A DNA stretch of 59,606 nt from positions 1-59,606 of the forward strand of contig DAINAU010000002.1 in the NCBI GenBank assembly GCA_036733285.1. The letters run 5' to 3'. This document shows, in pieces, positions 9,177-59,020 of this stretch; position 1 is the stretch's first letter; each line of letters opens with the position of its first letter. Under the pieces are notes generated by a model. It was given only the letters and a program-made list of their open reading frames with translations. It searched no databases and was not told the DNA's origin. The translations under genes and the position numbers were made by a program. This DNA is from a bacterium. Its GTDB lineage: Bacteria; JAGOBX01.

Positions 9177-9201
9177 ATTACTGCAATACCCCTGCTTCTC
9201 C

Positions 9202-12486: not shown

Positions 12487-12542
12487 GGTTTCCCCTTGAT
12501 AATATATTGAACGTTTTACGATTTTCCGGCGCAAAGTCCGGA

Positions 12543-13442: not shown

Positions 13443-13477
13443 CTCGTTAGATTCAACGGCATAATTTAATCTACATA

Positions 13478-13551: not shown

Positions 13552-13560
13552 ATAGTAAAT

Positions 13561-13611
13561 TTTGTATTATCAAAAATATTTTTTTTCGCAAAATTTTTTT
13601 GATAATACAAA
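13561..13611. repeat. Long AT-rich hairpin (16-bp perfect outer arms) just downstream of moxR
   Basis: tttgtattatcaaaaa (13561-13576) pairs with tttttgataatacaaa (13596-13611). It shares the TTATCAAAAATATT core with the 121-165 hairpin. Confidence 0.85.
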
Positions 13612-13633
13612 TAGCTTTTTCGGCTTACCCGGC

Positions 13634-38209: not shown

Positions 38210-38405
38210 GAAATATCATTAAAAAATAAAAAAAAAAGTTGTTATAATTTATTTGTTAATATATAATTTTATAAATTTTTTTAAAATATTTTTCTTCTAT
38301 TCTATTTTTATAACTATTTTTTTAAAATTCTTATTAAAAAATGAACGAAGATTTTTATTTTAAAATCATATCTTTTTTATTTTTTTTTGTTTAAAATTGA
38401 ATATA

Positions 38406-41400: not shown

Positions 41401-44400
41401 CCCAACCCGGCTGGAAAAATCTGCCGGTTTCAAAAAAAGGGTGGGTGACTTTTGACGAGACCTCGCTTGACAACAATATCGGACATAAAGCGGTTCTGGA
41501 AGACAATGAAGACAATCAAAAATCTATGATTATTTCATATGATTTAACCAACGATTCCGCCGGAGTTTTAAATTATGACACATGGTTTGCAATTAGAACG
41601 CTCGTATCAAAAGACGGCGTAGACATATCAAAGAAAAAATATCTTGAATTCTGGATTCAAGGAGCCGACAGTTTTAATATAAGTCTTGATTTAGGAAGAA
41701 TTAATGAAGACGCCGACGGCGACGGAGTGTTGGACCAGGAAGACGGTTTATATGTTAACGGAATCCCGACTGAAAAAAATTCATTGAACGGAGTTTTAAA
41801 CAAATCTCCCAACGAAGACGTGGGTTTATCATACGAATGCGGCGGCAAAATTAAAAATACCGGCAAAGGCAACGGAAGATTGGATTCGGAAGATATGAAC
41901 GGAGACGGCGAACTTGATCAGATAGAATCTTTTTACAGAATAACCGATATTGACACGTTTCAAGGCGAAGGAAAAATAATAAACGGAATCCCTTACAAAT
42001 TTTATAGAATAACTCTTGGAGATTTATATCAAAACTCTATGAATTCGCCTAATAATAAAAGCATTAAACACATCAGATTTATTTTCACAAGAAAAGACGG
42101 GGCAACCGCAGCTCCTGCCGGCAATATTTATATGGACTATCTTTCCATAGTCGGAAGTTTATGGCTCGACGGAGATACGGATAATTTTAAAGCCGGAAGC
42201 AAAAACAATATCGACGACAACGATTACGCTTCTTTCAACGAAGAAATGTCTTTAAGAAAAGTCGAAGACGAAGACGAAGGAGCCGTAAAAGAAAGCGCGT
42301 TATTCTTGAAATACGATAAAATCGGTTATTACGATTACAGTTCGCCTTCATACAAATATTACGCGGAACGAGATTTCGGAAGATCTATAAGCGTGGCAAA
42401 ATATGAAAAATTGATTTTTTACGTCCGCAGTTCGGAAAATAACGGAGAAACAGCGTTTATCAGACTTGGAGACCAAAACAATTATTACGAATATAAATTT
42501 AAAATTCCCGAAGTATCTTCAGACATAACAAAATGGGAGAAAATTGAAATTCCATTAATGGCGTTCAGAACTATTGTCAATTCCATTAACGACAGCTCTG
42601 TGAATCCTCCTTATATTATTGATTCCGGCCCTTACCGGGTTTGCGCTCAAACCTCGCTTGTTTCATTATATAACATCAGAACAATAAAATTCGGAGTTAT
42701 AGGCGACACGAATTTATCCACAGGAAATTTGTTTATTAATACGCTCTATGTGGAAGGAGCGATTAAAGAAACGGGAATTGCCAGAAAAACTCAGTGGCAA
42801 ACCAAATTTTACAAGGACATTTTTATTTTCAACGCAAGGGAAGATTACAGAGAAAACACTTTCCGCAGCGTCGATGAGATTTCTTCTTCCGTATCGCAAT
42901 CATTCGTTCCGGAAAAAAGCTCGAAAAAAAGTTACGACGGCAGCGTGGCAATCGGCAGACTGCTTCCTTCAAAATGGGGAATAACTCTGCCGGTAAGCGG
43001 AACTTATACAAAAAGCGACGTTGTGGTTGAACCGGACGTAGTTCAGGACGTCGAGCGGAGTAAGATAGGGACTACCGGATCTAAAACGCAAACGTTTTCA
43101 ACGTCTTTTTCAAAAGACAAATTTCCGTTGCTGAAACTTGATTATGAAAATTCGGAAACAGATAAAGATTTAACCGAATCAAAATACAAATTTCTATCGA
43201 AAAAATTAAATTCTTCGGCAAGTTATTCAATTAATTTCAACAAACATATTTTCGGAGAATTGGCTTTAATAAAAAAAATACCACTGCTTAATAAAATCCC
43301 TTCCGGAAAAGAATTACGCGTCGATATGAACTACCAGTATAATTACACTATCGACGATAAAGATTATATTCTCGGAACCGAAGCTTCCGCATACGACAAA
43401 TATGTTACGCATTACAAGAAAATGGGAATAACTTCCAAACCGGCAAACTGGATTAGACTTCAGCCGAATATTTCGATAACCGACAAATATCATACCACTA
43501 TGCAGGTAGACGGACTTGAAAACAATATAGTTCAAACCTCCATAAACATAGATATAATCAAAGTATTGGGAATAAAACCGGTATTCGATTTCAGCCGCAG
43601 CAAAGATTCAAGATACGATATTTCAAGACCTGATTCCGACCCGATTGAAAATCTCGATTACGGCGCCGGAGTAAAACTCGATATATATCCGGTTGACTGG
43701 TGGAAACGCCTGAAATTTTTAGACGGCAGGTTTAATCTCAGCGGAAAATATGTGGAAACCTTAAACGCAAATCAAGCCGTTAAAGATAAAAATTCAGATA
43801 TAAACGCTTCATTATCATTGGACGTAAATATCAGACCCAACGAATTATGGAAAAGACTTAAATTCCTGACCGTTCATTATTCATACGGCAATAACGTATC
43901 CGCGACATATTCAAAATTGGGAACCGATAAGGATTTCAATTCGATTTATACGGATTATTTTTCAAAATACATCTGGCCCTGGTTAAGCAAGGATAGAATA
44001 CCTATAAACGAGGGCGACACTTCAATAATAGATAAACGTAGCGCGGCGAACAATTCTCAATCGCACACCATAAACGGACAATTTAATTTCTGGGATCCTT
44101 TAAGCTTGAGATATGCTTATTCCACAAAAAATTCTATTACGCAAAGTCAGTCTTCGGAGAGTTTTAGCAAATCGTTAAGCGCTCAGATAAATTCGCGGCT
44201 TGATTTGATTAAAAGCCTTAAACTTATGAAAAAAACAAAAAAATCAAGTTTAAACATCGATTATAAATATTCAAAAGACGATTCCGGCGATTACAAAATG
44301 AATTTAACCGAATCGCTTAATCACGACAGAAACATAGGTCTTGAAATATTATGGACTGATAAATTCAACACTGTTTTCAATATGGGACTTCCGTTCAGCA

Positions 44401-44786
44401 AAAAAAATTCAGTTTCCGAAAGCGGACTTACGATTGAAAAAACGAATTCCTACACTCCTAAGATCACGTGGAATTATTATACCGCGTCGCCTTTCAAATT
44501 GTTAAAACCATTCACAAATAAAAAATGGATTTTCGACAATAAACTAAATCTTAACGGAACAATCAATTATAATCTGCAAAAAACCTCGATTCAACGAACC
44601 GACAATACCAATTATAATTCTGCGAATCTTGTCGAATTCGGTTTTACCGTAGGCGCTCAATACGATATGAGCGATTTTTTCAGAATGAGCGCGGATTTGC
44701 GTTTGAACAAGCATCAAAATAAAATTACCGAAGGCGACGATTACATAGAATACGGCATTAACACTAAAATTATTATTATTTTCTGA
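38406..44786 (+). CDS. sprA: SprA/Sov-like very large outer-membrane protein (T9SS translocon homolog)
   Basis: Signal peptide; SprA-like motifs IDQTLEVKVRGKVGDNVEVNIDYDDQ, SEIVKVDGRTLTRNVDYYIDYESG, KTLVGTRFE, EVARSEFDPN..G.AMIDDME, DLGRINED.DGDG.LD.ED, LDSEDMNGDG; beta-strand-rich C-terminal ~600 aa ending in Phe. The ORF track starts at TTG 38397. Confidence 0.8.
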   Translation: MIEYKNRVYFFVLLFFLIEWINPYNFYAEPADKQKEEIYNLASQIIGIIDNKISAVSESDKKKLAELLIEQSEYFLLKMQTTENTDSDLALKDKESYINLLKKTEQIYNFIDYQPGIFLCKSRLLKFEISGIEPLSDYESSKKNLIGKISSYLKELPAEESAQFKSSSNQNLEIKPLPSGSESVAESVSAKSVAESVSAKSVAESVSAKSVAAPVKNVNDKSIFSQQTGINTDTPQSQSSGQSPETGIISNVSSTQNETHPVIPVNSVSGSAENSNDFDSSAAADSLPKKIILSDTYQIQEIKEILEPSVSSSLQPFFHQPALLEPKLSYSNDMKISPVLRHILFTEKLEKEFEEIRSQRLLDLTDLKYGNTKLSISGQKTINFSYSNRKYSKNTDSTENSSDFKIDQTLEVKVRGKVGDNVEVNIDYDDQRSSSNRQQLSIDYKSDEHILNKRTNSNIFSGYAAFGDIVLSLPSTEFVSYRRSLFGINGGIKIRNLNYSILKADQITLDIIASRTKGEPGHKEFTGNNSSQIINTVFDVNYVKNKYFKVHTGVGLDTDIDVTSLSVYIDDKNPTNDQSNIDTFAIEVNPNDHTKYNISMNGDTYRIYSFTQLTAVKDYTYDKTKGILTLNSYITDNYAIAVTYTTYKGYATPHKKLIKKDKDSQNSDTYSIYNIKNRYSFGVSNINKNDPDFIFKIQDKNNNYMSDYYANAADSSSAISFLKIFGLDKTGPGPDGLYGTSDDRPDGKIDDDFIDYEDGWVEFPDPQPFNGSGSAQYGLSNPLIYTDDNPTSRFRFYLELKAQSQQFFLNAFDLVRNSEIVKVDGRTLTRNVDYYIDYESGLLIFLDPSLLTKNSKVVVDYERVPFGSSANKTLVGTRFEAIVNPNFKAGTTMIFNTNDKSSEIPTIDAAPQSTSVKDFDMEMRPANLFVNILNKFLKNDIKEPPSSWFDIKLITEVARSEFDPNIFGKAMIDDMESSKDAIDINMNYKSWMLTHLTESQPGWKNLPVSKKGWVTFDETSLDNNIGHKAVLEDNEDNQKSMIISYDLTNDSAGVLNYDTWFAIRTLVSKDGVDISKKKYLEFWIQGADSFNISLDLGRINEDADGDGVLDQEDGLYVNGIPTEKNSLNGVLNKSPNEDVGLSYECGGKIKNTGKGNGRLDSEDMNGDGELDQIESFYRITDIDTFQGEGKIINGIPYKFYRITLGDLYQNSMNSPNNKSIKHIRFIFTRKDGATAAPAGNIYMDYLSIVGSLWLDGDTDNFKAGSKNNIDDNDYASFNEEMSLRKVEDEDEGAVKESALFLKYDKIGYYDYSSPSYKYYAERDFGRSISVAKYEKLIFYVRSSENNGETAFIRLGDQNNYYEYKFKIPEVSSDITKWEKIEIPLMAFRTIVNSINDSSVNPPYIIDSGPYRVCAQTSLVSLYNIRTIKFGVIGDTNLSTGNLFINTLYVEGAIKETGIARKTQWQTKFYKDIFIFNAREDYRENTFRSVDEISSSVSQSFVPEKSSKKSYDGSVAIGRLLPSKWGITLPVSGTYTKSDVVVEPDVVQDVERSKIGTTGSKTQTFSTSFSKDKFPLLKLDYENSETDKDLTESKYKFLSKKLNSSASYSINFNKHIFGELALIKKIPLLNKIPSGKELRVDMNYQYNYTIDDKDYILGTEASAYDKYVTHYKKMGITSKPANWIRLQPNISITDKYHTTMQVDGLENNIVQTSINIDIIKVLGIKPVFDFSRSKDSRYDISRPDSDPIENLDYGAGVKLDIYPVDWWKRLKFLDGRFNLSGKYVETLNANQAVKDKNSDINASLSLDVNIRPNELWKRLKFLTVHYSYGNNVSATYSKLGTDKDFNSIYTDYFSKYIWPWLSKDRIPINEGDTSIIDKRSAANNSQSHTINGQFNFWDPLSLRYAYSTKNSITQSQSSESFSKSLSAQINSRLDLIKSLKLMKKTKKSSLNIDYKYSKDDSGDYKMNLTESLNHDRNIGLEILWTDKFNTVFNMGLPFSKKNSVSESGLTIEKTNSYTPKITWNYYTASPFKLLKPFTNKKWIFDNKLNLNGTINYNLQKTSIQRTDNTNYNSANLVEFGFTVGAQYDMSDFFRMSADLRLNKHQNKITEGDDYIEYGINTKIIIIF
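38950..39042 (+). repeat. In-frame 27-bp tandem repeat (SVAESVSAK x3 plus partial), each unit a perfect hairpin
   Basis: aatccgttgcggaaagcgtttccgcaa at 38950, 38977 and 39004, each containing TTGCGGAAA-GCG-TTTCCGCAA. Confidence 0.95.
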
Positions 44787-46052: not shown

Positions 46053-47339
46053 TCAATTCATCAAATCATAACCGAGTCTGCAGAAATGGAGGTTTAATTT
46101 GTTTTGCGCAACGGTTATATTTTCTATTTCATATTCTTTCAGAAATCGTTTTTCATCGTTGAATAACGAAATTTTGAAATTATAAACTCCGGGTTTAAGT
46201 TTAAGAAAAAATACGTTGAGTCTGCCTGGGAGCGTGTTCCAAAATCTCGGATCCATCGAGTCTTTTCCTCTTATCAGCCAGCCTATGGGTTTTGCGTCTC
46301 TTGTGGTTTTTCTTCTTATCTCGTCTTTTATTTCGTCTTTAAACAGATTATATGCGGTTTTTGTTATTATATCTTTAATTTTTTGTTCGGGAATATTTGT
46401 GTTAAATGATTTTACAGCGATATTATCGAGGTTTAAAAAAGCGTTTATTCCTGATTTGCTTCTCGGTTCCGGAACCGGAATATACGAAGGAGAAACTTCT
46501 TTAAACAAAATATTTAAAATCTGCTCGTTATCTTCCGAATCGACAGCTTTACTGATTTTATATTGAGTTTTCAATTTATTATATATTTCGAGAGAATACT
46601 GAGAATAATTAATGTCGTTTACGGATTTTGGCAAATCCGCAAATATTATAACCGGTTCAAAAAAATTATAATCCTGAAAAAAATAATAGTCCGAATATTT
46701 TGATAAAACGCTATTGATATTTTTAGCGCTTTCTTCCTCGTATCCGAGACTTTTTAATGTTGAAGCGAGAATATCGTATGCCGGCAAAAACGTGTCGTCA
46801 ATCGAAATGATTTTGCGCATTGAAACCATACCGGTATTATAATCTCTTAAATTTTTTATGGAAATACAGCCAAGCAATAATTCCGAAAATACTGATTGCG
46901 GCTCGTTAATCAGGGATTTTCTCAATTCAATAAGGCATTTTTCCGTATCGTTTAAATAATAAAAACAGACAGCTTTAAAAAAATGCAGATACGCAAGGTC
47001 GAGTTCTTTTAGCTGATAAGGAAGCCGGTCGGAAGCTATTACTGAACTTACTATAAAATTTTTTTCGAAATTTAATTCTTCAGCTTCGGTCAGAATGCGC
47101 AAAGTTTCAGAATAGTTTTTTTCCCAAAACCTCGACGCCGCAAGGTTTAATAAATATAAAGTTTTATTAATTGAAAATTTTGCCGATGCGCCGTCGGAAT
47201 ATTCTTTTGCCGCTTCGGAAAATTTGTTCGAATAAAATAAATTATCGCCTTTTCTTGCAGACTGCATTCCGGCGCAGGAACATAACACTGCGGCAAACGA
47301 AGCAATTACAAAACCGCGGACAATTCTATTTATTACCAT
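46053..47339 (-). CDS. TPR lipoprotein (COG3014-like)
   Basis: Lipobox LCSC after ATG 47339; TPR-like LYLLNLAASRF..KNYSE; D.RFWNTLPGRL near the C-terminus; adjacent to an LpoB-like gene. Confidence 0.72.
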   Translation of the reverse strand: MVINRIVRGFVIASFAAVLCSCAGMQSARKGDNLFYSNKFSEAAKEYSDGASAKFSINKTLYLLNLAASRFWEKNYSETLRILTEAEELNFEKNFIVSSVIASDRLPYQLKELDLAYLHFFKAVCFYYLNDTEKCLIELRKSLINEPQSVFSELLLGCISIKNLRDYNTGMVSMRKIISIDDTFLPAYDILASTLKSLGYEEESAKNINSVLSKYSDYYFFQDYNFFEPVIIFADLPKSVNDINYSQYSLEIYNKLKTQYKISKAVDSEDNEQILNILFKEVSPSYIPVPEPRSKSGINAFLNLDNIAVKSFNTNIPEQKIKDIITKTAYNLFKDEIKDEIRRKTTRDAKPIGWLIRGKDSMDPRFWNTLPGRLNVFFLKLKPGVYNFKISLFNDEKRFLKEYEIENITVAQNKLNLHFCRLGYDLMN

Positions 47340-47914
47340 CTGCTTTTTACTTGCGTTTTTTTGAATTCTGCCTGACCCGACCATAATTCAACGCCAGTAG
47401 TAGTATTGGTTATAGTAATTGATAATCTGAAATATGTCTCCTGTTTTTTCGTGATGGGATTCCAGCCGTCTGACCGCGTTTTATCTATCGAATCAATTCT
47501 TCCATACATCAAATAATCGGCTCCCCAGAATTTGTTTCGCTGTTGAATGTGTTCCGCGGTTCTGTCTATTAAATTTTGTTCTTCTTCAATAACGCTCATT
47601 CGGTCGCGTTCCACAAATACGGCTCCGGATTTTGTTTTTATGGCTTCCTTGATTTTTTCGGAAATTATTTTTGTGTTGAAATGTTCTGACGTCATATTGT
47701 CAATGGAACGTAAGGCGACCGTTTTGCCTTTTATTTCAACGAAATCTTTTGAAATATCGCCTGCGATTTTTGAAGCCATCGTTTCAATATCAACGTTGGT
47801 AACTCCGGTATCCGCGTTAATATCGCTGTCGACGTCGACTCTTTTTGAAGCGCATCCAAACGCTAAAACCAAACAAAAAAATACGGCAAACGAAATTCTA
47901 ATAATTTTAAACAT
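47333..47914 (-). CDS. LpoB-like / CsgG-HfaB-fold lipoprotein
   Basis: Lipobox AFGC; DIETMASKI; IDNMTSEHFNT; FVERDRM; GADYLMYGRI; TGVELWS. Confidence 0.75.
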   Translation of the reverse strand: MFKIIRISFAVFFCLVLAFGCASKRVDVDSDINADTGVTNVDIETMASKIAGDISKDFVEIKGKTVALRSIDNMTSEHFNTKIISEKIKEAIKTKSGAVFVERDRMSVIEEEQNLIDRTAEHIQQRNKFWGADYLMYGRIDSIDKTRSDGWNPITKKQETYFRLSITITNTTTGVELWSGQAEFKKTQVKSRW

Positions 47915-47933: not shown

Positions 47934-50798
47934 CTATTTTTTTTTATAAGAATTCAAATTGTTTTCAAATATTATGATTTTATTGTCAAAACACAATAAT
48001 AAATCAATATCTCCGTCGCTGTTATAATCGCAGAAATACGACTGATATGCGATAGAATCATTTTGTCTGGCTATATCGGTTTCCATGTTTTCAGAAATAA
48101 AATCCAAATCTTTGTTCTTGAAAATATAATTTTTTTTATTTTTGCAACTGATAAACAAATCGGAATTTCCGTCCCCGTCGTAATCGCCCGAACATACGGA
48201 AGCCGCTTCTGACAAAAGGTCGACCTGCGATTTTGATTCTCTCAAAGCGAGATCTTTTCCCATATTCCAAAACAGCAAATTATTATATAGCCCGCCGTTT
48301 ATCGGAATATTTGAAAAAGTTAAAAAAAGGTCGGTTTTGCCGTCGTTGTTTAAATCGGCAAATTCTGCGCAGGAAATTTTTATATCCGCGTTTTCAATAA
48401 GAATTTTCCTGTCAAAGGATTTTCCGTTTTTGTTTTCGAGCAAAAGAAGATTATTGTTCATAGCAAAATTTGTTTTGCACAAAATATCCGAGTATCCGTC
48501 CTTATTAAAATCCGCGGCTTTTATAAAATCAAACGAATCCGTCATTGATATGCCCAGCTCTGCGTTTGCGTTGGCAAATGTATAATCTTTGATATTTTCA
48601 AAAAGAAAAATCCTGCCGGTCTTCTGAAGAATAAGCAAATCGGGATATCCGTCGGCATTTATTTCCAATATCTGCAAATCTTTTATATCGGAATTGGCGG
48701 AAATTTTAAACTTATTTTCTATCGCTTCAAATTTTCCGTAACTCAATCCTCTGAAAGCTTTCAAAAATCCGTTTTGAAGAATAAGCAAATCATTTTTTCC
48801 GTCATTTTCCAAATCGCAAACAAAAGGTTTGATAAAATTTTCAGTGTCGTCAAGCGTAATCCCCGTATTTACCGGCTCAAATTTTGATTTGCCGTTGTTA
48901 TAAAAAATAATGATATTGAAATCCCGGACGACAATTATATCGGAAAGCCCGTTTCCGTCGACGTCTTCAAAAATCGAAAACGGAATCAGATTATCCGCTA
49001 TCGAAATCAAATTTTCAGAAAAAATTTTCCCCTTAAATTTCGGCGTAACGCTTGTAAATATTTCAGGACTTAAATTTGGAACTTCATCTCCGCATTTTAT
49101 TCCAAGTTTATATTCGTAATCGTTCATAACTCCGGATATGGTAAAAATTCCTATTCCGGGAGCGAGTTTGAATTCCTTTAACGCTTTGTTATCCTTATCG
49201 TAAAGAGTTAACAACTGAAATTCAATATCTCCGTTCAATTCCGGCGAAACCGTCCAAGACGCGGTTATTCGGTTATTTATTCCGGACGCCGTTAAATTTG
49301 AAACTGGAGCCGGAGCGTCAACGTCTGCCGGAATCGCAAATCCTATTTCGAACTCGGAACTTTCATTTAACGATTCGTCGTATGCGGATAAAGCGATTTT
49401 ATATTTTATGCCGTTAGTTACATTTTCAATAAGATAAGAGCTGAAATTTTTTGGAAGATGAACATTTTTTAAAAATTCGTTCTTGTCGTTATACAAGTAT
49501 AAAATATATCCCTTTAAATCATAATCGTTTTGTTTTTTTGAAAGTCTTATTTTAATAGAATTATTTAAAGAATCTACAATCATTTTCGGCGGCTTTGCCG
49601 GAGGGATATCGTCTATGGCAAGCGCTTCGATTTCTTTCCCCTGCGTTTCAGGTCTAAGCGGTTCCTGCAAAGTAACTCTAAAAAGATATTTGTTTCCGTT
49701 AGTAAGATTTTCAACGATGTGGCTCTGCATCTGCGGACCGGCTATTCCAATATATTCCCAAGCTCCGGTTCTTGCATTGTTCTGATAAATCAATTGTCTT
49801 TCGATTTTTCTGTTAATAGACAAATCCCAGTATAATCGTATTCTTTTATCAAAAGGTTCAAACCGTAAATTAACTATTTCTGCCGGTTTTCTTATGTCCA
49901 GCTCAGGTATTTCTGAAAAAGCCTCGTATAAATAATTAGCGCAATATTCAAGCGTTCGCGCAACCTGTTTTACATAATCGGTATTCCAGTCGGTATATGA
50001 AACGTCAAGTCCGGACAGCGAATCGACATTTTTAGATACGACTGCATTTCTATTCAAACCGTCGGACATAGGCAAAAGATTATACATCGTAATCGCGTTC
50101 ATTCTTTTATACGGCTCGGGATTATACATATCCAAAACCGTAAATTTAATGAGATTTACAACGGCTTCTTCAATATTGAATTTATTCTTATATCCGTCAA
50201 ATTTTATCTGCGAATCAAGTTTATATAAATTTTCCGAAGCCGCAAATTTATCAATCTCGGCGAAGTATTCTTTTATAACCTCGTTTTTAGCCGAACCAAA
50301 AGCGGAATTTTTTCCCATACTGTAGGGCCACAACGCCAAACTGCAATAATATTTGGTCATCGTTCCGAGAAAAAAAGCGCCGGCTTCGGCGTTTCCGTTT
50401 TTTATCGAAGACGCGGCTTTATTCATTTCCGATTCTATTATCTGCATAAACCGCCGCATAGAGGCATTATCTTTCAATAATGAAACGTTGTTTTCGTCCG
50501 GCAACGGGATATTGTAATAAAAATTCGAGAGCTGCCTGTAATAATAATCCATATCTATTTGTTTGGTTATGGCGTCAAGCTCAAAGTTTTCTCCGGAAGC
50601 CGCAAGCGCTCCGAATTCAAAATACTTCTTGTATTTTGAAATCCATTCGAATTTCTTTTTTGTATTCTCGTCAAATGAAACAGACTTGTTGAAACTGTAA
50701 TAATATAAATTTAAATTTTTATCGATTATTTGCAAGTCATATCCGTAAGAATACGAAACCGAAAAAATTATCAGGGAGGCAATTAATATTTTTTTCAT
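47934..50798 (-). CDS. Secreted modular protein: degenerate Zn-phospholipase C/P1-like domain, about three Fn3 domains, FG-GAP/VCBS repeats
   Basis: Signal peptide; AFFLG.M.KY...L...Y.MG helix; Fn3 motifs (LTNGNKYLFRV, VTNGIKYKIALSAYDESLNES); D-x-D/N-x-D-G-x-x-D repeats. Confidence 0.75.
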   Translation of the reverse strand: MKKILIASLIIFSVSYSYGYDLQIIDKNLNLYYYSFNKSVSFDENTKKKFEWISKYKKYFEFGALAASGENFELDAITKQIDMDYYYRQLSNFYYNIPLPDENNVSLLKDNASMRRFMQIIESEMNKAASSIKNGNAEAGAFFLGTMTKYYCSLALWPYSMGKNSAFGSAKNEVIKEYFAEIDKFAASENLYKLDSQIKFDGYKNKFNIEEAVVNLIKFTVLDMYNPEPYKRMNAITMYNLLPMSDGLNRNAVVSKNVDSLSGLDVSYTDWNTDYVKQVARTLEYCANYLYEAFSEIPELDIRKPAEIVNLRFEPFDKRIRLYWDLSINRKIERQLIYQNNARTGAWEYIGIAGPQMQSHIVENLTNGNKYLFRVTLQEPLRPETQGKEIEALAIDDIPPAKPPKMIVDSLNNSIKIRLSKKQNDYDLKGYILYLYNDKNEFLKNVHLPKNFSSYLIENVTNGIKYKIALSAYDESLNESSEFEIGFAIPADVDAPAPVSNLTASGINNRITASWTVSPELNGDIEFQLLTLYDKDNKALKEFKLAPGIGIFTISGVMNDYEYKLGIKCGDEVPNLSPEIFTSVTPKFKGKIFSENLISIADNLIPFSIFEDVDGNGLSDIIVVRDFNIIIFYNNGKSKFEPVNTGITLDDTENFIKPFVCDLENDGKNDLLILQNGFLKAFRGLSYGKFEAIENKFKISANSDIKDLQILEINADGYPDLLILQKTGRIFLFENIKDYTFANANAELGISMTDSFDFIKAADFNKDGYSDILCKTNFAMNNNLLLLENKNGKSFDRKILIENADIKISCAEFADLNNDGKTDLFLTFSNIPINGGLYNNLLFWNMGKDLALRESKSQVDLLSEAASVCSGDYDGDGNSDLFISCKNKKNYIFKNKDLDFISENMETDIARQNDSIAYQSYFCDYNSDGDIDLLLCFDNKIIIFENNLNSYKKK

Positions 50799-50895
50799 AA
50801 AAAAAATCCCGATTATATATAAAATTCAGATTATATATAATATTATAATCAAATTTTTAATAGTCAATATTTTTTATAAAATCTTTAAACTTTTT

Positions 50896-53166
50896 TTACC
50901 GAGAAGAATAGGATTGAGCTTCAAGATATTTCTTAAAATAATCCGGACGTATGGAATTTGTCATTCTGAAGTAATACTCCGCTTTGTAATTTTCGTTTAG
51001 TTTATAATACAATAATGCAATCTGCCCGTAATAATACGGATTGTATTTATCGAGTTCAGAAGCCATTAAATAAAAATCTATGGATTTCATATAATTGTTT
51101 GTAAGATAAAATAAATTCGCAATATTATTAATGTATGTTAGATTTTTTTTGTTTTTTTCGTATAAAAACATATAGTAATTCAGAGCTTGAAAATAATTTT
51201 TTTCTTTAATAGAAATGTCGGCGATTTTTTTTATTTCAAAATCCGGCTTATCGTCCGCGACGGCGGAAGAATTTAAAAAGACGTTTGCGAATTCATAATA
51301 TTCGTTATTGAATTCAAAAATTAAATCCTCGGCAAAAGGAATATCGGGATTATACGGTTGATTCAGATTCAGAGGCGGATATTTTTCCCATATATCATTA
51401 ATATCGAATATGCGGTAATCCGAGGTTTGAATATTTTCCAAACCGGTTTTCCATGCGGCGATAAAACTTTTATCTAACGCGGAAACTTCTATAGGCGCGT
51501 AAAATTCGCCGTTTAAGTTGATCAGCATATTCTTAAGATATTCAAATTCGTTTATATTTTCTATTCCGGAATTGAAAGCTATAAAAATATGTTTTGGTTG
51601 AATAATTAATTTTACGTCGATTCCGGCGTTTAAAAATAACGAAGCGAACAAAACGGAAAAATCATCGCAATCGCCGCGTTTAAGTTCGAGCGTTTCCGCG
51701 GGATATTGAATAAAATCGAGCAGTTTTTGTTCGTCGTTATATCCGTGAAACGGATATAAAACGTCTTTTTCATATTTTAATCCGGTAAGTTTTAAAGCGT
51801 TAAACAAGACCGCGGCTTTGTTAATATTCGCGGGAAGCGGAAGTTTGAAACTCTTATTTTTAATAAGTTCCGTTAGTTTTGAATTGAATTTTTCGACAGG
51901 CGAAGATTTCGGAGAAATAAAAACTCCTATCTTTTCCGGCTCGTTCCATAAAAATGAATTTTTGTTAAATATGACGATAGGAATTTTTTCATAATCGACG
52001 TATTCCCTGTTGTTGATTCTATAATAAAATTTCACGGTAAATTGTTTTGAAACAAAATCGCGGATATTAAAAATATTATCGTTGAAATTTATTGGAACGC
52101 ATATTTTTCTTTCCTCGCCGGCTTTAAAAAGAAACGCGTTTTTTTTCGAAGAAACTGCGAATTCGTTGTCTGAAATATCAATATCAATTGAGATTGATTT
52201 ATCCGCCGTATTGACAATACGAAAAACCGTAAAAGGATTGGAACTGCTCGAATAAATGTTTTTTAAACTCGGAAAAAAAACGATTGGTTCCGAAGAATCA
52301 ATTAATTTGACGAAATTTTTAAAACCGAATTTATAACCGAGCGCGAACTTGTAAGAATTTCCGAGTTCCGAATTCAAATCGTTCGAGTAATCAATAAAAA
52401 AATCTTTCGCCAAAAATCTTAATCCGAAAGAATATCTTGCCGAATCGTTTGGAGAAAATTGCTTTTTTAAACCGCCGAACAAATGCAGAATATTCGGAAA
52501 CGCTCTGAATTCTCCGCCGAAATAAAATATTTTTCTGTCGTCGTAATCGGTTCCGAATAGAAATTTTCCGATATTATAGGATAATCCCAATCTTATATAA
52601 TTATCGTCAAAATCGGATTTTACTCCGTCGGAATATTTTATTTTCGGATTGTTAATATTTGCGAACATTACGCCGGCGCGGAAATTACTTTTTGAATAAA
52701 GCAGACCCGCGTCGTAAGAATTGGCGGTTCCGTCATTTTTTACAATCGACAGATAATCCGCGTCTGTATTGTAATTTTTATAAGTAAAGCCAAGACTTAT
52801 GTCTTTGAAAATTTTTCCCGCGAAATTAAATAAAAAATTATTTTGAGCGAACGACAGTTCGCCGTCGTCAAAATTTGCGCCGGCATATCCGGCAATCAAA
52901 CCGAAATTTCTGAACAAGGGAAGCGAATATAAAAGTTGATTATGCTTGACGTCAAGTTTGTAAATATCCGTTGAAAACATATAAATCTCGTGATTATTCA
53001 AAAAAGCCGCGCCCGCAGGGTTATAAAAAACGGATGACGCGTCGTCCGCTATGCCGGTAAATGCCGATATTGAACCGGCTCTCGTCGTATTGATAATCTG
53101 ATAGGCGTCTGCGTTTGACGCGGCGAAAATCGCGAATATAATAAAAAATATTAAATATTTTTTCAT
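50896..53166 (-). CDS. PorV/PorQ (FadL-like) beta-barrel fused to Ig-like, transglutaminase-like and TPR domains
   Basis: AFTGIADDASSVFYNPAG at the N-terminus; barrel end LGNSYKFALGYKF; QYPAETLELKRGDCDDFSVLFASL...KHIF...PIEVS; C-terminal TPRs. Confidence 0.78.
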   Translation of the reverse strand: MKKYLIFFIIFAIFAASNADAYQIINTTRAGSISAFTGIADDASSVFYNPAGAAFLNNHEIYMFSTDIYKLDVKHNQLLYSLPLFRNFGLIAGYAGANFDDGELSFAQNNFLFNFAGKIFKDISLGFTYKNYNTDADYLSIVKNDGTANSYDAGLLYSKSNFRAGVMFANINNPKIKYSDGVKSDFDDNYIRLGLSYNIGKFLFGTDYDDRKIFYFGGEFRAFPNILHLFGGLKKQFSPNDSARYSFGLRFLAKDFFIDYSNDLNSELGNSYKFALGYKFGFKNFVKLIDSSEPIVFFPSLKNIYSSSSNPFTVFRIVNTADKSISIDIDISDNEFAVSSKKNAFLFKAGEERKICVPINFNDNIFNIRDFVSKQFTVKFYYRINNREYVDYEKIPIVIFNKNSFLWNEPEKIGVFISPKSSPVEKFNSKLTELIKNKSFKLPLPANINKAAVLFNALKLTGLKYEKDVLYPFHGYNDEQKLLDFIQYPAETLELKRGDCDDFSVLFASLFLNAGIDVKLIIQPKHIFIAFNSGIENINEFEYLKNMLINLNGEFYAPIEVSALDKSFIAAWKTGLENIQTSDYRIFDINDIWEKYPPLNLNQPYNPDIPFAEDLIFEFNNEYYEFANVFLNSSAVADDKPDFEIKKIADISIKEKNYFQALNYYMFLYEKNKKNLTYINNIANLFYLTNNYMKSIDFYLMASELDKYNPYYYGQIALLYYKLNENYKAEYYFRMTNSIRPDYFKKYLEAQSYSSR

Positions 53167-53183: not shown

Positions 53184-55763
53184 TTATTTAACATAAATCG
53201 TTTTTTTTAAAACTCCCGAGTTATCTTTGCAGAATAGCGCGTATAATCCGGCAGGAACTTTTTTCCCGTTTTTGTTTTTTCCGTTCCATTTGTTTGTTCT
53301 GTCGCTGAACATCAATTTTCCGTTTAAATCAAATACGCTTATTTCAGCGGAACCGTTAATATTTAAAACCGATATTTCGTCGCCGTCAAATTCAATAACG
53401 CGTTTATTTAAAGAAAGAGACGATGTGATTACCTCCAATGAAACAGGGGGATTCATTGCAGCGGCATATATTCCGGATCTATTAAACGAAGAGGTTATTG
53501 TATTGTTTATCGAATCGTAATATCCCCCCAAATTCAACCACGCAGAATCGCGTCCGTTGTTAAATAAAATGCTGAAATCGCCGGAAACCCCAGAGGACGA
53601 TTTTAAAGCTTTTTTAATAGCCGGAGCAAATACTGATTCTGAAACTTTAACCGTAATCATAAATTTTTTTGCAATAAGGCTGTCGTCAAATTCTATTTTA
53701 TATTTGTCTGAAACAAATATAAGTCCGGGTCCGTTGAAAGAAGCTATCGTTTTATAAACAACGATATCCAGCGGAATATCCGCCGCTTTCAAAGGAAAAT
53801 CCAGTTTTAAATTGCCATTATCCGAAGTAAAAACGGAATATTTGTTTGAAGAAATTTTCATTGTGTCGTTTTTGAATGAAAACGATACCGAGTCCGTTGA
53901 AAAATAAACCGAATCAGTTTCAAATACCGATAATTCGGCAGTATAAGTATCGTCCGGAAAATTCAGCGAATTGAAAGAATAAATTATTCCCGAATCGACC
54001 GGTTGAAAAATATCGGTATCTAAAACAGTATTCCCTGAAAGCGTAAAAATTTTAAAATTATAATAATAAAAATTTGAATCCGATGCCGAGCCGGTAAAAT
54101 TAATTACGCCGCCGCCGTAATTAATATTTTTATCCAGAATAGCGCAGGGCATTTTATTGTCGATAATAATTTTACGATATGCCGGAGTCATTGATTTTTT
54201 GTCTCGAAAAGACTGCTCAACCTGAAAAATATATTCGCCGTCTAAAAGCCCGCCGAATGTTTTTTCAAAAACATAGTCCGGTTCCGAATAACCGGAACCG
54301 TTGATTCTGTAAGAACTTTTAGGCGCTATAATATTTTCCATTTGAATCCATTTGAAAGTAACCGACGTGTCGTGAATAAGATTGTTTCGAGGCTCGTAAA
54401 TCAAAGGCGTGGAAAAATCGGCGTTATTTCCCGTATTATTGAGCGTGAACATAAATTTTGAATTGCAAACCGAATTGTAATCCGCCGGAGAATCCAGGGT
54501 TATGGCAGTGATAATTTTTTCTTCGGTAGCCGCGATAATGTCCATTTTTCCGTCGTTATCAAAATCATTTATAACAGGCGTGGATTCGATTATTTTTTTT
54601 TGAGGCGTATAATAATGATATTTTACTTTATTCATACCATAATTATAAACTTGAATCTCTCCGTTATATGTGGCGATTATTATTTCCATTTCGGTATCGC
54701 CGTCGATATTAGCTATTACAGGGCAGGAAACTCCCGCCGAATCAGAATTCGGGAATCCTGAAAAAAGCTGGGCGGAGTTATCTAAAAAGAGAAACTGTCC
54801 GGGATTTTGGATTTTATTGTAATTGGTCAGTATAAAAAAAATCATATCGCTTGCGCCGTCTCCGTTAAAATCATATATAGCCGGATGACATCTCATCAGC
54901 GCGTTGAAATAATAAGGATAATTCTGAAGATACGCTATTTTTCCGTTTGAGTCGATATTAAAAACATACGCGTTATAATCCCATGCGGTTATTATGAATT
55001 CCTGAATTCCGTCGTTGTCGATATCCGCCGCCGCCGGAGGAGCGTCAATTCTTGCGTTGATTTTACTTGAAAGAATTCTCTCTCCATTATGTTTGAATAT
55101 CGAAAAAACTCCGCCGTTGGCGCAAACCGTGATTTCAAAAAATCCGTCGTTGTCGTAGTCGGTTATAAGCGTTGTTGTTCTGGAGCCCAAATCAAAATTG
55201 TATTGACTGTTTTCGGTATTAGGAACGATTCTTTGAGGCCAGCCGGACAATGATTTGCCCGTGCCGTCAATTACGTAAAGATAACCGTCTAATCCGGCGA
55301 CTATAATATCCGGCGTTCCGTTTCTATCAATGTCGGCAATCGAGGGCGCGCCTCTGATTTCCTGCGTTGTTGCGAATGGAAATCCTTTTGCCAAGGAACC
55401 GTCGAATTTAATAACGTTTAAAAGAGAGTTTTTAGAACCGATTATTATTTCGGCTTTACCGTCGTTATCTATATCCGCTATTGCAGGCGAAGACCATATC
55501 GCGTCGCCTGCAAATACTGGAAAACCCGGTTTTGACGTTCCGTCGCTTTGAACCGCGTAAATATAACCGCTTTTATCGCCTGCAATATATTCTTTTATTC
55601 CGTCCGCGTCTATATCCGCTACGGCTCCGTTTCCATAAAAATCTCCGAATGACGTATATGGAAATCCGTCTAATACGCGGAAACTTGCGGTTTCGCAGTA
55701 TCCCTGACAAATCCCGCATACGACAATAAAAATAATCGAAGCCGCAATAATTGTTCTATTCAT
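53184..55763 (-). CDS. FG-GAP repeat protein with Ig-like domains and a FlgD-Ig/T9SS-like C-terminal domain
   Basis: Signal peptide; repeated SSPAIADIDNDG; C-terminus ISVFDLNGK...WNGKNKNGKKVPAGLY...KKTIYVK. Confidence 0.82.
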   Translation of the reverse strand: MNRTIIAASIIFIVVCGICQGYCETASFRVLDGFPYTSFGDFYGNGAVADIDADGIKEYIAGDKSGYIYAVQSDGTSKPGFPVFAGDAIWSSPAIADIDNDGKAEIIIGSKNSLLNVIKFDGSLAKGFPFATTQEIRGAPSIADIDRNGTPDIIVAGLDGYLYVIDGTGKSLSGWPQRIVPNTENSQYNFDLGSRTTTLITDYDNDGFFEITVCANGGVFSIFKHNGERILSSKINARIDAPPAAADIDNDGIQEFIITAWDYNAYVFNIDSNGKIAYLQNYPYYFNALMRCHPAIYDFNGDGASDMIFFILTNYNKIQNPGQFLFLDNSAQLFSGFPNSDSAGVSCPVIANIDGDTEMEIIIATYNGEIQVYNYGMNKVKYHYYTPQKKIIESTPVINDFDNDGKMDIIAATEEKIITAITLDSPADYNSVCNSKFMFTLNNTGNNADFSTPLIYEPRNNLIHDTSVTFKWIQMENIIAPKSSYRINGSGYSEPDYVFEKTFGGLLDGEYIFQVEQSFRDKKSMTPAYRKIIIDNKMPCAILDKNINYGGGVINFTGSASDSNFYYYNFKIFTLSGNTVLDTDIFQPVDSGIIYSFNSLNFPDDTYTAELSVFETDSVYFSTDSVSFSFKNDTMKISSNKYSVFTSDNGNLKLDFPLKAADIPLDIVVYKTIASFNGPGLIFVSDKYKIEFDDSLIAKKFMITVKVSESVFAPAIKKALKSSSGVSGDFSILFNNGRDSAWLNLGGYYDSINNTITSSFNRSGIYAAAMNPPVSLEVITSSLSLNKRVIEFDGDEISVLNINGSAEISVFDLNGKLMFSDRTNKWNGKNKNGKKVPAGLYALFCKDNSGVLKKTIYVK

Positions 55764-58360
55764 TTTATATAAACAGCCTTTTTAATTTTTTTAGAACCGG
55801 TTTCAAATAAAATAATATATAATCCGGATTTATACTTTGCTCCGGAAAAATATACGGGGAAACTATGATTCCCCGAAGGAAAATTCCCGTCGTAAATTTT
55901 ATCTATTAAAATTCCGTTTAAATCATAAATTTTTATGTTTAATTTTTCCTGTCTTTCAAAATAAAAATTTATAGAGGCGTTTTGATTTTGCGTAATAATT
56001 CTCGGGGTAACGGAGATATTTAATTTTTCAGTATCTATCGGCGCAAAATATTCGTAACTGTCCGAACTGGCCGCGGCAAAATAGCGGCCGCTGTTTCTGA
56101 AAATAAAATTAATATAACCGTCGAATATTGAACCTCCGATTTTCGTTATATCCGCGCCTGTAGAATCAGAAGAATAATAAACTGATATCGGTCTGTTTTC
56201 AAACGATATGCCCCGTTCCTGTTTTGGTTTTGAAAATCGCGACGAATTTAATTCGGTCGGCGATAGTTTTATTGCGCAGTTTAACGGCTGTTTTAAACTA
56301 ATGTTTTCGCCGCCGATAAAATAGACCGGACTGAATAAAGAAAGATTATCGTATGCCGATAACTGAGCGCAGTATATTTCAAAATTCTGGTTGTATTCGA
56401 CGCTGTTTTGAGGAACGGATATTTCTACCGCTGAACTGTCAAAACAAATTTTGCCGTTATACTCTGGAGTTAATAGGATTTCAGATTTTGAGTTTATTAC
56501 GGTTATTTCAGATTCGGAAAAATTATTTGACAACAGTTCATACGCGCAAATTTTTAAATTTATAGTTCCGCCGGAATATTCGGAAAAATCGAATTGAAAT
56601 TGAATGGTTTCCGGAGTATTGTGAGATTCATAAATTTTTTTATAACCGGTAGTATCGGTTTTGATAAAACATAAAATCGTGTCAATATTATTTTCTTTAA
56701 TGTTAAATTTGATATTCCACAATCCCGAAACAGTCTGATTGTTTTGAGGCGAGATAAAACTAATTTCAGGAGGCGCATTATCAATTTTAAAAACGAATTT
56801 AAGATTTTCCGCAGTCGTTCTGTTTCGTTCGTTTTTTGCTTTTAATAGAAAAACGTAATCTGAATCCGTAAGATTGTTAAAAGTAATTTGAGAGTCTTTT
56901 GAAAAATCCGAAAACGGATTTCCGTTGAGAGAATATGAATAATAATAAGTATCGAAAAAATGGGGATTTTTCCATTTGACAGTATAATTATTTCCTCGCG
57001 TAATGAATGCCGAATCATTGCAAATAACCGGTTGCGTTATAAAAAAATTTGTGTTAGTGTTGCGGATATCTCCAAGCGGATAAACCGAATATGCAGTCGA
57101 AGAGTTTGTAGGTATAATATGAATCTGGTTTTCATCGTTATATACGATATCTGCTTTTCGGTTTCCGTCGACGTCCGCTATAACAGAAGCCATCACGTCT
57201 TTGCCTTCTAAAGAAATTTCCGCTAACTTTTTCATAAAACTGTCCGCTTCATTTTCATAACCTATGATATTCAGATAGTTTTTAAATCCGGGGTAAACCA
57301 AATCAAGAAGCCCGTTGTTGTCATAATCGATATACGAAGCGGAATAATAATTCATTCTGTCAGTTATTTTACGGTCTATAAATCTCGGATACGAATCGAC
57401 GAATTCGATAGCGTTGAAAGTGTCGTTGGCGATTGTTTGAAACGTAACCGCGGCAAATAAATCATAAGGTTTGATATTTGAACCTGTTTTTAAATGAGAC
57501 GTTAATGCGAATTCAAAATTGTCGGAATATTTTATTGAAGCGCCGCCGATTAGATTGTCGGTATAAGGCGGCTGATTGGAATAATAATCAAATAGTCTTG
57601 AATCCCTTTTATTGGAATAGGTATATATATAAAAACATTTTCCATAAGAGTAAATAATTTCAGGATAAGTATCCCCGTCAAAAGAGTCTGTAACAAAAAA
57701 AGTGTTGTAATCGCTTTTGAACGACATAGAAGTCAGTTCGCCGAAAGCTCCGTTGTTTTTTAAATTGACGTATTTAACGCGCCTATCCTGACAGCATACT
57801 ATCAAATCGTTATATCCGTCTTTGTTATTATCGAAAAGAATCGGAGGTTTTTCAATTTCGGAAATTAAATCTACAGGATAATATGAATTAAGAATTCCTT
57901 TTCCGTTGAAATTGTATAATCTGGTATTTCCGATTAATATTTCAAGCTCGTTGTCCTTGTTGAAATCCGCAATTACCGGATTTAAATATTTGGGAGAATA
58001 ATTCGCGACGTAAATATTTTCAAACCCTGGTTTTAAATTTCCTGCGGATAAATCAAACGCCTGTAAAAATCCCGAAGCGGTCCAGCAAACTATATCAAGT
58101 ATTCCGTCGTAGTCTATGTCCGCTATCGCCGGCAGCGAATTTACCGTTCCGTTAGTATATATTTTTTTTATGAGATTAAGATTTTCGTCATATATAACAA
58201 GGGAATCATCCGAACAAGCGGCGATTATCTCGGATTTGTCGTCGTTATTTATGTCAAAACAGATTGCGGTATTTGTGTATTCCGCGTTTAAACGAAAACA
58301 AAATACGGACAGAGCCAAAAAGATTAGTAAAAAACATTTAAAAAGTCGATATATAAACAT
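55760..58360 (-). CDS. FG-GAP repeat protein with a T9SS type A-like C-terminal domain
   Basis: Signal peptide; LPAIADIDYDG repeats; C-terminus P...QNASINF...IKIYDLNG..I..I..G....G.H......KSGLYII......KKAVYIK. Its stop overlaps the next gene's ATG. Confidence 0.82.
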   Translation of the reverse strand: MFIYRLFKCFLLIFLALSVFCFRLNAEYTNTAICFDINNDDKSEIIAACSDDSLVIYDENLNLIKKIYTNGTVNSLPAIADIDYDGILDIVCWTASGFLQAFDLSAGNLKPGFENIYVANYSPKYLNPVIADFNKDNELEILIGNTRLYNFNGKGILNSYYPVDLISEIEKPPILFDNNKDGYNDLIVCCQDRRVKYVNLKNNGAFGELTSMSFKSDYNTFFVTDSFDGDTYPEIIYSYGKCFYIYTYSNKRDSRLFDYYSNQPPYTDNLIGGASIKYSDNFEFALTSHLKTGSNIKPYDLFAAVTFQTIANDTFNAIEFVDSYPRFIDRKITDRMNYYSASYIDYDNNGLLDLVYPGFKNYLNIIGYENEADSFMKKLAEISLEGKDVMASVIADVDGNRKADIVYNDENQIHIIPTNSSTAYSVYPLGDIRNTNTNFFITQPVICNDSAFITRGNNYTVKWKNPHFFDTYYYSYSLNGNPFSDFSKDSQITFNNLTDSDYVFLLKAKNERNRTTAENLKFVFKIDNAPPEISFISPQNNQTVSGLWNIKFNIKENNIDTILCFIKTDTTGYKKIYESHNTPETIQFQFDFSEYSGGTINLKICAYELLSNNFSESEITVINSKSEILLTPEYNGKICFDSSAVEISVPQNSVEYNQNFEIYCAQLSAYDNLSLFSPVYFIGGENISLKQPLNCAIKLSPTELNSSRFSKPKQERGISFENRPISVYYSSDSTGADITKIGGSIFDGYINFIFRNSGRYFAAASSDSYEYFAPIDTEKLNISVTPRIITQNQNASINFYFERQEKLNIKIYDLNGILIDKIYDGNFPSGNHSFPVYFSGAKYKSGLYIILFETGSKKIKKAVYIK

Positions 58361-58372: not shown

Positions 58373-59020
58373 TTATTTTGAAATTAAAATTGGAAATCCT
58401 CTTGAATCCCAGAGCTTGACATATCCGGTTTTTCTGTTTTTCAAAAAGGTTTCTTCGCTTTGCGGCATACCGTTTTCATAATATTTTATTCGTTTGCCGT
58501 TCAGTAATCCATTGTCGTAATTTGCCTCGCAGCTTACCGTATTATTTGGAAAACGGTATACGCATTTTCCGTGAAGATTTCCGTCGAGATAATTTTCTTC
58601 GAGTTTTATGTTTCCATTATCATACCATTCGGTTCGTTTGCCGTGAAAGTCGCCGCGTTTGTAATTTTCTTCAAGCGTTTTCTCGCCGTCAAAATTCCAT
58701 TTGACGAATTTTCTGATTTTGTTCTCGTTTTGAAATATGTTTACAGATATGATTTTATTGTTTAAAAATTCAAATTCGTATAATTTTACATCTCTCGTTT
58801 TTTTTTCCGTGTATCCCTCTATTAGTCTGTGAAAAGGATTCTCTAAAACAGAGATGATTTCTTTATCGGCAACGGGTCTGTTTATAAAATAATAAACCGG
58901 TTCCGAAATAATTTTTTTTTCAGAACCTGTTTGAGCTTGGACGCTGATTATTCCGGAATAATTGAATCCGATAAAAAATATTGTAAGAACCGCGGTTACT
59001 AATTTTATTTTTGAAATCAT
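58373..59020 (-). CDS. Exported MORN-variant repeat protein
   Basis: Signal or anchor; repeats such as HGKRTEWYDNGNIKLEENYLDGNLHGK and NGKRIKYYENG. Confidence 0.85.
   Translation of the reverse strand: MISKIKLVTAVLTIFFIGFNYSGIISVQAQTGSEKKIISEPVYYFINRPVADKEIISVLENPFHRLIEGYTEKKTRDVKLYEFEFLNNKIISVNIFQNENKIRKFVKWNFDGEKTLEENYKRGDFHGKRTEWYDNGNIKLEENYLDGNLHGKCVYRFPNNTVSCEANYDNGLLNGKRIKYYENGMPQSEETFLKNRKTGYVKLWDSRGFPILISK

Follow-up and report, generated by a model that had tools for sequence, protein, structure and literature searches.

Outer-membrane barrels of the PorV type are familiar parts of type IX secretion systems (T9SS), which are present in several phyla of the Fibrobacterota-Chlorobiota-Bacteroidota (FCB) group beyond Bacteroidota (PMC11285876). 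PorV shuttles cargo and holds PorU, and PorQ holds PorZ. A barrel that holds its own cognate surface protein thus has precedents in PorU on PorV, PorZ on PorQ, and SprB/PG1035 on SprF/PorP (PMC9143113, PMC10202324). No form of PorV, PorQ, or PorP/SprF is known other than the bare barrel. Here, we describe a gene, found in a 59,606-nucleotide stretch of bacterial DNA (contig DAINAU010000002.1 of assembly GCA_036733285.1, lineage JAGOBX01; "the window" below is this whole stretch), that encodes a PorV-type barrel fused to an arm made of an immunoglobulin (Ig)-like domain, a transglutaminase-like enzyme domain, and tetratricopeptide repeats (TPRs). The gene sits next to genes for secreted FG-GAP propeller proteins that end in a T9SS-like C-terminal domain (CTD). 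Our preferred reading, to which we assign an even chance, is a composite one: the fusion would be a cognate PorV-type anchor for the neighboring CTD-bearing FG-GAP cargo and would carry a periplasmic enzyme/TPR arm, and it would not replace PorU.

Two other systems bear on the arm and its genetic surroundings. LapG is a periplasmic transglutaminase-like protease that acts on a surface protein, releasing the adhesin LapA, and is controlled by the inner-membrane receptor LapD. Elsewhere, FecR proteins have been described as paired with CHASE2 proteins (PMC5192318). Our search of the literature found no description of an enzyme arm on a PorV-type barrel or of the gene cluster in which the fusion lies.

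RESULTS

A single open reading frame (ORF) of 756 codons for amino acids, with an ATG start, fills positions 50896 to 53166 of the minus strand exactly. Sequence motifs, Pfam matches, profile and fold searches, and a structural model agree that it joins a PorV/PorQ-type barrel to an Ig-like spacer, a transglutaminase-like core, and TPRs, which is how an earlier note made from the DNA letters had read it. The model was predicted by AlphaFold from a 41-sequence alignment of full-length homologs and had a predicted local distance difference test score (pLDDT) of 88.5, against 32 for a prediction from the single sequence. The N terminus is a typical Sec signal peptide (residues 1 to 21, MKKYLIFFIIFAIFAASNADA, then YQ after the predicted cleavage site; 53104 to 53166), and residues 1 to 22 had low pLDDT. 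An N-terminal plug (residues ~22 to 58) and the 14-stranded barrel (59 to 280, ending in GYKFGF) occupy 52312 to 53103, and the Ig-like spacer (residues ~286 to 402; 51961 to 52311), a region conserved in the family, forms a seven-strand sandwich in the confident model. The transglutaminase/papain-like enzyme domain (residues ~403 to 610; 51337 to 51960) is followed by a linker helix (611 to 640) and a C-terminal TPR array (~641 to 756; together 50899 to 51336), with all parts on the minus strand. Over residues ~641 to 755, consensus TPR proteins in the PDB matched by sequence at an E value of 7.5e-17, the model contained paired helices, and the fold matches were designed TPRs. When the whole protein was scanned against Pfam, matches were weak (TraF_2, Transglut_core, DUF553, Toluene_X, and UPF0164). 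A frameshift or assembly artifact was rejected as the origin of the fusion because the identical protein is encoded on eight independent contigs and because the architecture recurs in hundreds of clusters.

That the N-terminal domain is such a barrel and belongs to the PorV/PorQ family is nearly certain. The NCBIfam PorV_fam model matched 39 of the 41 full-length homologs, and three of four full-length members scanned singly exceeded its cutoff of 90 bits (P0005, 101.8; P0007, 92.4; and P0012, 96.2). When a barrel profile that included the window protein was compared to the PDB, PorV of F. johnsoniae (6h3i_F) was the sole significant match (E value of 1.5e-17), and the alignment spanned the whole barrel except an insert at PorV residues 240 to 323. 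PorV in the SprA-PorV complex (6h3i_F) was also the top PDB match in a fold search (E value of 8.6e-9, target-normalized template modeling [TM] score of 0.63, and root mean square deviation [RMSD] of 3.8 Å), in which PorV with a bound RemA CTD (8gl6_F) was matched as well. Thus, the earlier assignment of the barrel to the PorV/PorQ family is borne out by the profile matches of homologs, by the one significant profile match in the PDB, and by the best fold match. Used as the sole query, the window barrel matched nothing in a PDB sequence search, and a fold search against viral structures returned generic barrels and TPRs only. The barrel region alone gave 27.8 bits for TraF_2 (Pfam cutoff, 25). 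In the model, a helical plug (23 to 58) precedes the 14 strands, and within the plug D42 and an N49-P50-A-G motif are invariant across the family. Strands 3 to 5 are unusually long (13 to 17 residues) and recall the hairpin by which PorV enters SprA.

The likeness to PorV and PorQ has limits. The homologous plugged 14-stranded barrel, the place of the relatives in the NCBIfam family, the position of the gene beside type A-like CTD proteins, and a SprA-like gene in the window are all in keeping with PorV/PorQ. Unlike PorV and PorQ, however, the fusion has a shorter barrel that lacks the long PorV insert, carries an arm of ~470 residues at its C terminus, and appears dedicated to one gene cluster, whereas PorV is a general shuttle. 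Moreover, relatives scored only ~30 to 40 bits with the equivalog models for PorV (NF033710; cutoff, 250) and PorQ (NF033711; cutoff, 220), far under the cutoffs. We conclude that these barrels form a distinct subfamily and are not the general shuttle. The fusion might also be a FadL/TodX-like channel for hydrophobic molecules that carries a periplasmic enzyme and has nothing to do with type IX secretion. FadL and TodX were indeed the next-best fold matches, Toluene_X and UPF0164 gave weak, subthreshold matches to the barrel, and PorV/PorQ-family barrels occur in spirochetes without a T9SS (bioRxiv 10.1101/2025.01.03.631275). FadL and TodX fit much worse than PorV, however (TM score of ~0.5 and RMSD of ~8 Å), PorV alone was significant at the profile level (a FadL homolog reached an E value of 0.64 in the PDB sequence profile search), and adjacency to CTD genes is strong. 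We consider a channel of this kind extremely improbable.

In outer-membrane barrels, the side of chain entry and exit is the periplasm. A chain that forms 14 strands leaves the barrel on the side on which it entered, and on the evidence of the model, the Ig/enzyme/TPR arm should be periplasmic. The earlier note had cautioned that an even number of strands would put the enzyme there, and the 14 strands of the model agree with that caution and with the predicted location. As PorU acts at the cell surface (PMC10202324), a periplasmic arm would make the role of a PorU-like surface sortase unlikely.

The enzyme domain resembles the transglutaminase-like superfamily at close to threshold levels. Transglut_core gave 22.3 bits (cutoff, 23) with the whole protein, and the isolated domain gave 24.2 bits for Transglut_core (PF01841; cutoff, 23) and 21.1 bits for DUF553 (PF04473; cutoff, 20.5). 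The same two models gave 23.2 and 24.2 bits, respectively, with the relative P0002, and 8 of 41 relatives matched a transglutaminase-like Pfam model at an E value of ≤1e-3. Three motifs, GDCDDF (residues 498 to 503), KHIF (525 to 528), and PIEVS (558 to 562), supply the predicted catalytic residues. In the modeled alpha/beta domain, Cys500 (codon at 51667 to 51669, minus strand) opens helix 500-513, His526 (51589 to 51591, minus strand) opens strand 526-532, and Glu560 (51487 to 51489, minus strand), the predicted acidic member, lies just past strand 554-559. The arrangement is that of the superfamily, with the Cys at the start of a helix and the His and acidic residue on nearby strands. Among 150 cluster representatives that share at most 50% pairwise identity, each of the three positions was kept in 147, the acidic residue being Glu in 144 and Asp in 3. 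Such conservation argues for a working active site with a Cys-His-Glu triad, as predicted from the sequence. A PDB search with a profile of the Ig-enzyme region gave no significant match, and a transglutaminase-like chain that appeared at an E value of 1 was aligned on the Cys motif.

The window protein represents a large, undescribed subfamily of the PorV/PorQ family whose members lie in databases under generic names. GenBank labels them either "PorV/PorQ family protein" or "tetratricopeptide repeat protein." An exhaustive representative search found 2428 clusters at an E value of ≤1e-3 and 253 at ≤1e-30, many of them 750 to 900 amino acids long and aligned end to end, and at least 532 genomic loci emerged from a scan in which each species was represented by one genome. 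A word-indexed homology search had returned a single relative, at 41% identity, and unrelated TPR proteins dominated the results of a second such search, made with the full-length alignment; it was the exhaustive and genome scans that revealed the family. The nearest homolog is a 65%-identical gene in a metagenome-assembled genome (MAG) from a sludge digester. Full-length forms occur in Latescibacterota, Zixibacteria, Gemmatimonadota, Eisenbacteria, KSB1, Marinimicrobia, Krumholzibacteriia, Cytophagia, and some MAGs labeled as spirochetes. We note that a full-length fusion gene is also found on contigs binned as "Aenigmatarchaeota archaeon" (L026; QMZU01000172.1) and "Saccharimonadales" (L027; DATKKS010000245.1). 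Both are most likely binning contamination, as neither group has an outer membrane.

The barrel form of the family keeps company with CTD-bearing proteins. Neighborhoods were compared at 80 related loci, in which ORFs were called and clustered and CTDs were detected with a profile built from the C termini encoded in the window. A CTD-bearing protein was encoded within two genes upstream on the same strand at 41 of 52 barrel-type loci, and in 29 it was the immediate neighbor. By contrast, none was found near the enzyme module at the 15 loci at which the module lacks a PorV barrel. The upstream neighbors that were sampled were FG-GAP and Big_5 proteins with Por_Secre_tail/FlgD_ig ends, and the nearest homologs (65% and 41% identity) retain the upstream CTD gene. 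Many loci also hold an FG-GAP gene of ~510 amino acids without a CTD. The earlier note had tied the barrel to CTD-bearing cargo, and the tie holds across many phyla and is joined in the window by a SprA-like gene. Nor does the architecture occur mainly where SprA and CTD proteins are absent; for the barrel form, the opposite was found.

The arm also exists as an independent module. Ig-enzyme-TPR proteins with Sec signal peptides and no PorV barrel were found in Betaproteobacteria, Gammaproteobacteria, Elusimicrobia, Rokubacteria, and Leptospira (examples are loci L071, L080, L076, L075, and L065). In Curvibacter, Acidiferrobacterales, Elusimicrobia, and Rokubacteria, the module is the C-terminal part of proteins of 1100 to 1700 amino acids that contain NHL, PQQ, or Reg_prop propellers, with or without fn3 domains, and in Spirochaetota a small OmpA-like barrel precedes it. 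A BamD/YfiO-like TPR lipoprotein is often encoded after the barrel-less module, and CHASE2 sensors sometimes adjoin it. The constant association is thus that of a propeller with an enzyme arm, and a barrel of the PorV type is present precisely in those cases in which the propeller is a protein of its own that bears a CTD.

We also note that the Ig and enzyme region of four relatives (P0007, P0012, P0022, and P0046) aligns weakly to positions ~11 to 334 of the 1903-position model for the anti-phage protein ProA (NF058533). Scores were 33 to 54 bits against a cutoff of 1500, and the rest of ProA is absent from the relatives. The alignment points to a module shared with ProA, and the Ig-enzyme module may, judging from sequence, also serve in a defense protein. 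Our literature search found nothing on anti-phage ProA.

The distribution of the module bears on two other accounts of the fusion. In the first, proposed in the earlier note, the fusion would carry cargo and also cleave off or transfer its CTD, so that an unrelated Cys-His fold would do the work of PorU. Such a role would suit a single chain, encoded beside CTD genes, in which a conserved Cys-His enzyme accompanies a barrel of the PorV type, and the enzyme would have to reach the surface, for example, by an inverse-autotransporter-like topology. The plugged 14-stranded barrel, however, should have both termini in the periplasm and no free lumen for a passenger, and the module is widespread without CTD proteins or a PorV barrel. 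Moreover, the window protein matched no PorU model in Pfam and NCBIfam scans. Finally, attachment-complex genes are general in T9SS-bearing FCB phyla (PMC11285876), a statement that concerns phyla and not this genome. With the arm predicted on the wrong side, a module found apart from CTD proteins, and no likeness to PorU, the proposal is not supported, and we regard it as very unlikely. Because the family adjoins secreted propeller proteins, the fusion is probably their dedicated anchor and not a replacement for PorU.

The second account is that the barrel is mainly an anchor, such that the fusion is a periplasmic enzyme tethered to the outer membrane, and that the enzyme domain matures FG-GAP proteins by propeptide removal or quality control or releases them under regulation in the manner of LapG. 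The arm is predicted by the model to be periplasmic, the triad is strictly conserved, and propellers are always partners, whether by fusion or by operon. The attachment of the spirochete-type module to an unrelated small outer-membrane barrel suggests that anchoring alone may suffice. Against this account, Pfam scans of the protein and of its isolated domains gave no match to LapG-type families. It would also leave unexplained why the barrel is specifically of the PorV type where the partner has a T9SS CTD (41 of 52 loci versus 0 of 15). We consider a tethered processing enzyme of this kind unlikely.

Relatives often adjoin genes for putative signaling proteins. A CHASE2 sensor with a cyclase or CHAT output is encoded one to six genes away at 28 of 53 barrel-type loci and 5 of 19 nonbarrel loci. 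In about 24 loci, a gene for a small protein lies beside the fusion gene. The small protein is 150 to 180 amino acids long and secreted, and it has a near-invariant T[TA]VAGVRGAEAEDE motif with a TPR-like hairpin after it; we refer to it by its VAGVRGAEAED sequence or, in short, as the VAGVRG-motif protein. Pfam scans gave no match for it, and FecR-like proteins in L015, L028, and L033 have the VAGVRG motif too. Examples that lie between the fusion gene and the CHASE2 sensor are found at positions 6007 to 6519 of L019, 10597 to 11115 of L029, and 10767 to 11216 of L035. The enzyme arm could act on the VAGVRG-motif protein as a substrate or bind it as a ligand. The order of fusion gene, VAGVRG-motif gene, and CHASE2 gene in relatives resembles that of FecR and CHASE2 operons, such as "BiofilmReg" of Burkholderia (PMC5192318). 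Unlike the clusters described here, however, operons of the BiofilmReg type encode neither a barrel of the PorV type nor propeller cargo nor a transglutaminase-like enzyme, and the window for its part lacks VAGVRG-motif and CHASE2 genes.

In the window, the fusion gene lies directly downstream of two CTD-bearing genes, as the earlier note had it, though their CTDs match the type A sorting domain below cutoffs. The nearer gene (53184 to 55763, minus strand) encodes an 859-amino-acid FG-GAP propeller protein, a probable cargo, with a type A-like CTD in its last ~75 residues (~53187 to 53411), and is separated from the fusion gene by 17 nucleotides. The second (55760 to 58360, minus strand) encodes an 866-amino-acid FG-GAP protein with a type A-like CTD (~55763 to 55987) and overlaps the next gene by 4 nucleotides. 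Just upstream of both, a 215-amino-acid repeat protein is encoded at 58373 to 59020 on the minus strand. It clusters with the products of genes two positions from the fusion gene in five Marinimicrobia loci (L040, L042, L050, L052, and L068) and may be either a loosely conserved neighbor or a case of chance similarity among repeat proteins.

Downstream of the fusion gene, a gene at 47934 to 50798 (minus strand) encodes a 954-amino-acid FG-GAP and fn3 protein with a signal peptide and no CTD. It is the closest counterpart in the window of the ~510-amino-acid FG-GAP genes without a CTD that adjoin the fusion gene in other phyla. The 97-nucleotide gap between it and the fusion gene (50799 to 50895) is AT rich and contains, when read by eye, a TTGACT and TATAAT-like pair that is a possible internal promoter. 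Two further genes on the same strand may close the operon, as spacing suggests: one encodes a 193-amino-acid LpoB-like lipoprotein (47333 to 47914, minus strand) directly after the FG-GAP/fn3 gene, and the other, which overlaps it by 52 nucleotides, encodes a 443-amino-acid protein with a lipoprotein-like N terminus and no family match (46053 to 47384, minus strand). Neither is conserved beside the family in other loci.

As another possibility, the arm could attach to, trim, or cross-link peptidoglycan (or a different polymer of the envelope), so that the barrel and its surface cargo would be fastened to the cell wall in the way that PorE fastens PorP. Many peptidoglycan amidases have papain-like folds, and the operon of the window does continue with the LpoB-like lipoprotein. 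The PorE-PorP-PG1035 system is, moreover, a precedent for a cognate barrel anchored to the wall (PMC9143113). The LpoB-like neighbor is, however, not conserved in the other loci, in which the conserved partners are propellers, the FecR-like protein, and CHASE2 sensors. Furthermore, Pfam scans of the window protein and its relatives detected no peptidoglycan-binding domain of the OmpA_C, LysM, or SPOR type. We think it quite unlikely that the arm is a wall tether or wall enzyme.

Outside the operon, a gene at 38397 to 44786 on the plus strand encodes a 2129-amino-acid candidate for the SprA/Sov-like T9SS translocon (TIGR04189; E value of 8.3e-48 and 162.6 bits, with a cutoff of 200). Near residues ~175 to 205, the ORF has a short Ser/Ala-rich tandem repeat (SAKSVAESV). 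None of the 80 related loci had a SprA-like gene in the vicinity of the fusion family, and the nearness of one in the window is thus probably a coincidence. An NCBIfam scan of ten unannotated proteins of the window found no further T9SS parts. Farther away, a Bat/MoxR-type operon (3377 to 14620, minus strand) with genes for BatD, a TPR protein, two VWA/BatA-like proteins, a PpiC-type rotamase, a DUF58 protein, and a MoxR AAA ATPase is ordinary chromosomal context.

DISCUSSION

How a cognate anchor with an enzyme arm might work can be proposed in outline. CTD-bearing FG-GAP proteins would leave the cell by way of SprA, after which binding of the CTD to the barrel would keep them at the surface. 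That the barrel holds the neighboring CTD-bearing FG-GAP proteins is the step we find on balance probable, and we infer it from the conserved gene order and from the family to which the barrel belongs. The Ig-enzyme-TPR arm would hang in the periplasm, where it would be catalytically active as a cysteine protease or a transamidase, and its TPRs would be a docking platform for periplasmic partners. In the window, the FG-GAP/fn3 protein that lacks a CTD would be the likely partner, and in many relatives that place would be taken by the small VAGVRGAEAED protein, which is FecR-like, and by a CHASE2 sensor that has a cyclase or CHAT output. Through such a device, a propeller at the surface would be coupled to proteolysis or signaling in the periplasm, much as if PorP and PorE were joined in one chain and an enzyme were added.

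The comparison with PorP/SprF and PorE is the closest for the layout as a whole. PorP and SprF are 14-stranded FadL-family barrels that are encoded beside their own cargo, serve as its surface anchor, and are joined to a TPR-containing protein on the periplasmic side (PMC9143113), and the fusion would follow this logic. PorP and SprF serve type B CTDs, whereas the CTDs here look like type A, and the Pfam model for PorP_SprF (PF11751) matched only 1 of the 41 relatives. Moreover, the PorE lipoprotein is not part of the barrel chain and contains a propeller and an OmpA-like domain that binds peptidoglycan but no enzyme, whereas the arm described here is fused to the barrel and has a predicted Cys-His-Glu site.

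Several observations weigh against a cognate anchor with a periplasmic arm. The window protein itself did not match the NCBIfam PorV_fam model (NF033709; cutoff, 90 bits) at an E value of ≤0.01. The extracellular loops of its barrel are short, and the ~85-residue insert of PorV (PorV residues 240 to 323) is missing. The CTDs of the 859- and 866-amino-acid proteins fall below the curated cutoffs, with 21.6 and 17.4 bits for Por_Secre_tail (cutoff, 27) and 19.0 and 19.1 bits for TIGR04183 (cutoff, 23). No upstream CTD gene was found at 11 of the 52 barrel-type loci, several of which are on short or rearranged contigs. The side of the membrane on which the arm lies is deduced from a strand count. 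Finally, the window has no CHASE2 or VAGVRG-motif genes, and any signaling role here must therefore work differently or in trans.

A broader proposal would cover the family as a whole. The family may be the outer-membrane hub of an undescribed trans-envelope device, widespread in FCB-related phyla, in which the barrel holds a T9SS-exported propeller at the surface, and the arm processes or binds the VAGVRGAEAED protein and switches the CHASE2 sensor, relaying surface events to cyclic-nucleotide or protease signaling. Alternatively, the device might run in reverse, with signaling controlling release of the propeller in a LapG-like manner. The window would then be a reduced form without the CHASE2 branch. 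By analogy, the device would recall LapG-LapD-LapA in outline, as the enzyme would be periplasmic and, in relatives, is associated with a surface protein and a sensor of the inner membrane. Unlike LapG, however, the domain is fused to an outer-membrane barrel and had no match by sequence to LapG-type models or solved structures, and the partner sensors are CHASE2 proteins, unlike those of the LapD system. We offer the hub as a tentative idea that is rather doubtful as a whole.

Barrels that bind T9SS cargo have been thought of without catalytic attachments, and a conserved enzyme arm would wire them to periplasmic chemistry. The subfamily spans many poorly studied phyla, in which it clusters with secreted propellers and often with CHASE2 sensors. 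If our preferred reading of a cognate anchor with a periplasmic arm is true, the fusion is a concrete candidate for a dedicated barrel that holds type A-like cargo outside Bacteroidota. It would also give a handle on CHASE2 sensors, the ligands of which are not known, and it would mean that the annotations "PorV/PorQ family protein" and "TPR protein" conceal a conserved catalytic domain. The tempting idea of an enzyme that replaces PorU is set aside as unlikely. Ultimately, the family opens a testable link between the anchoring of type IX cargo and signaling in the periplasm.

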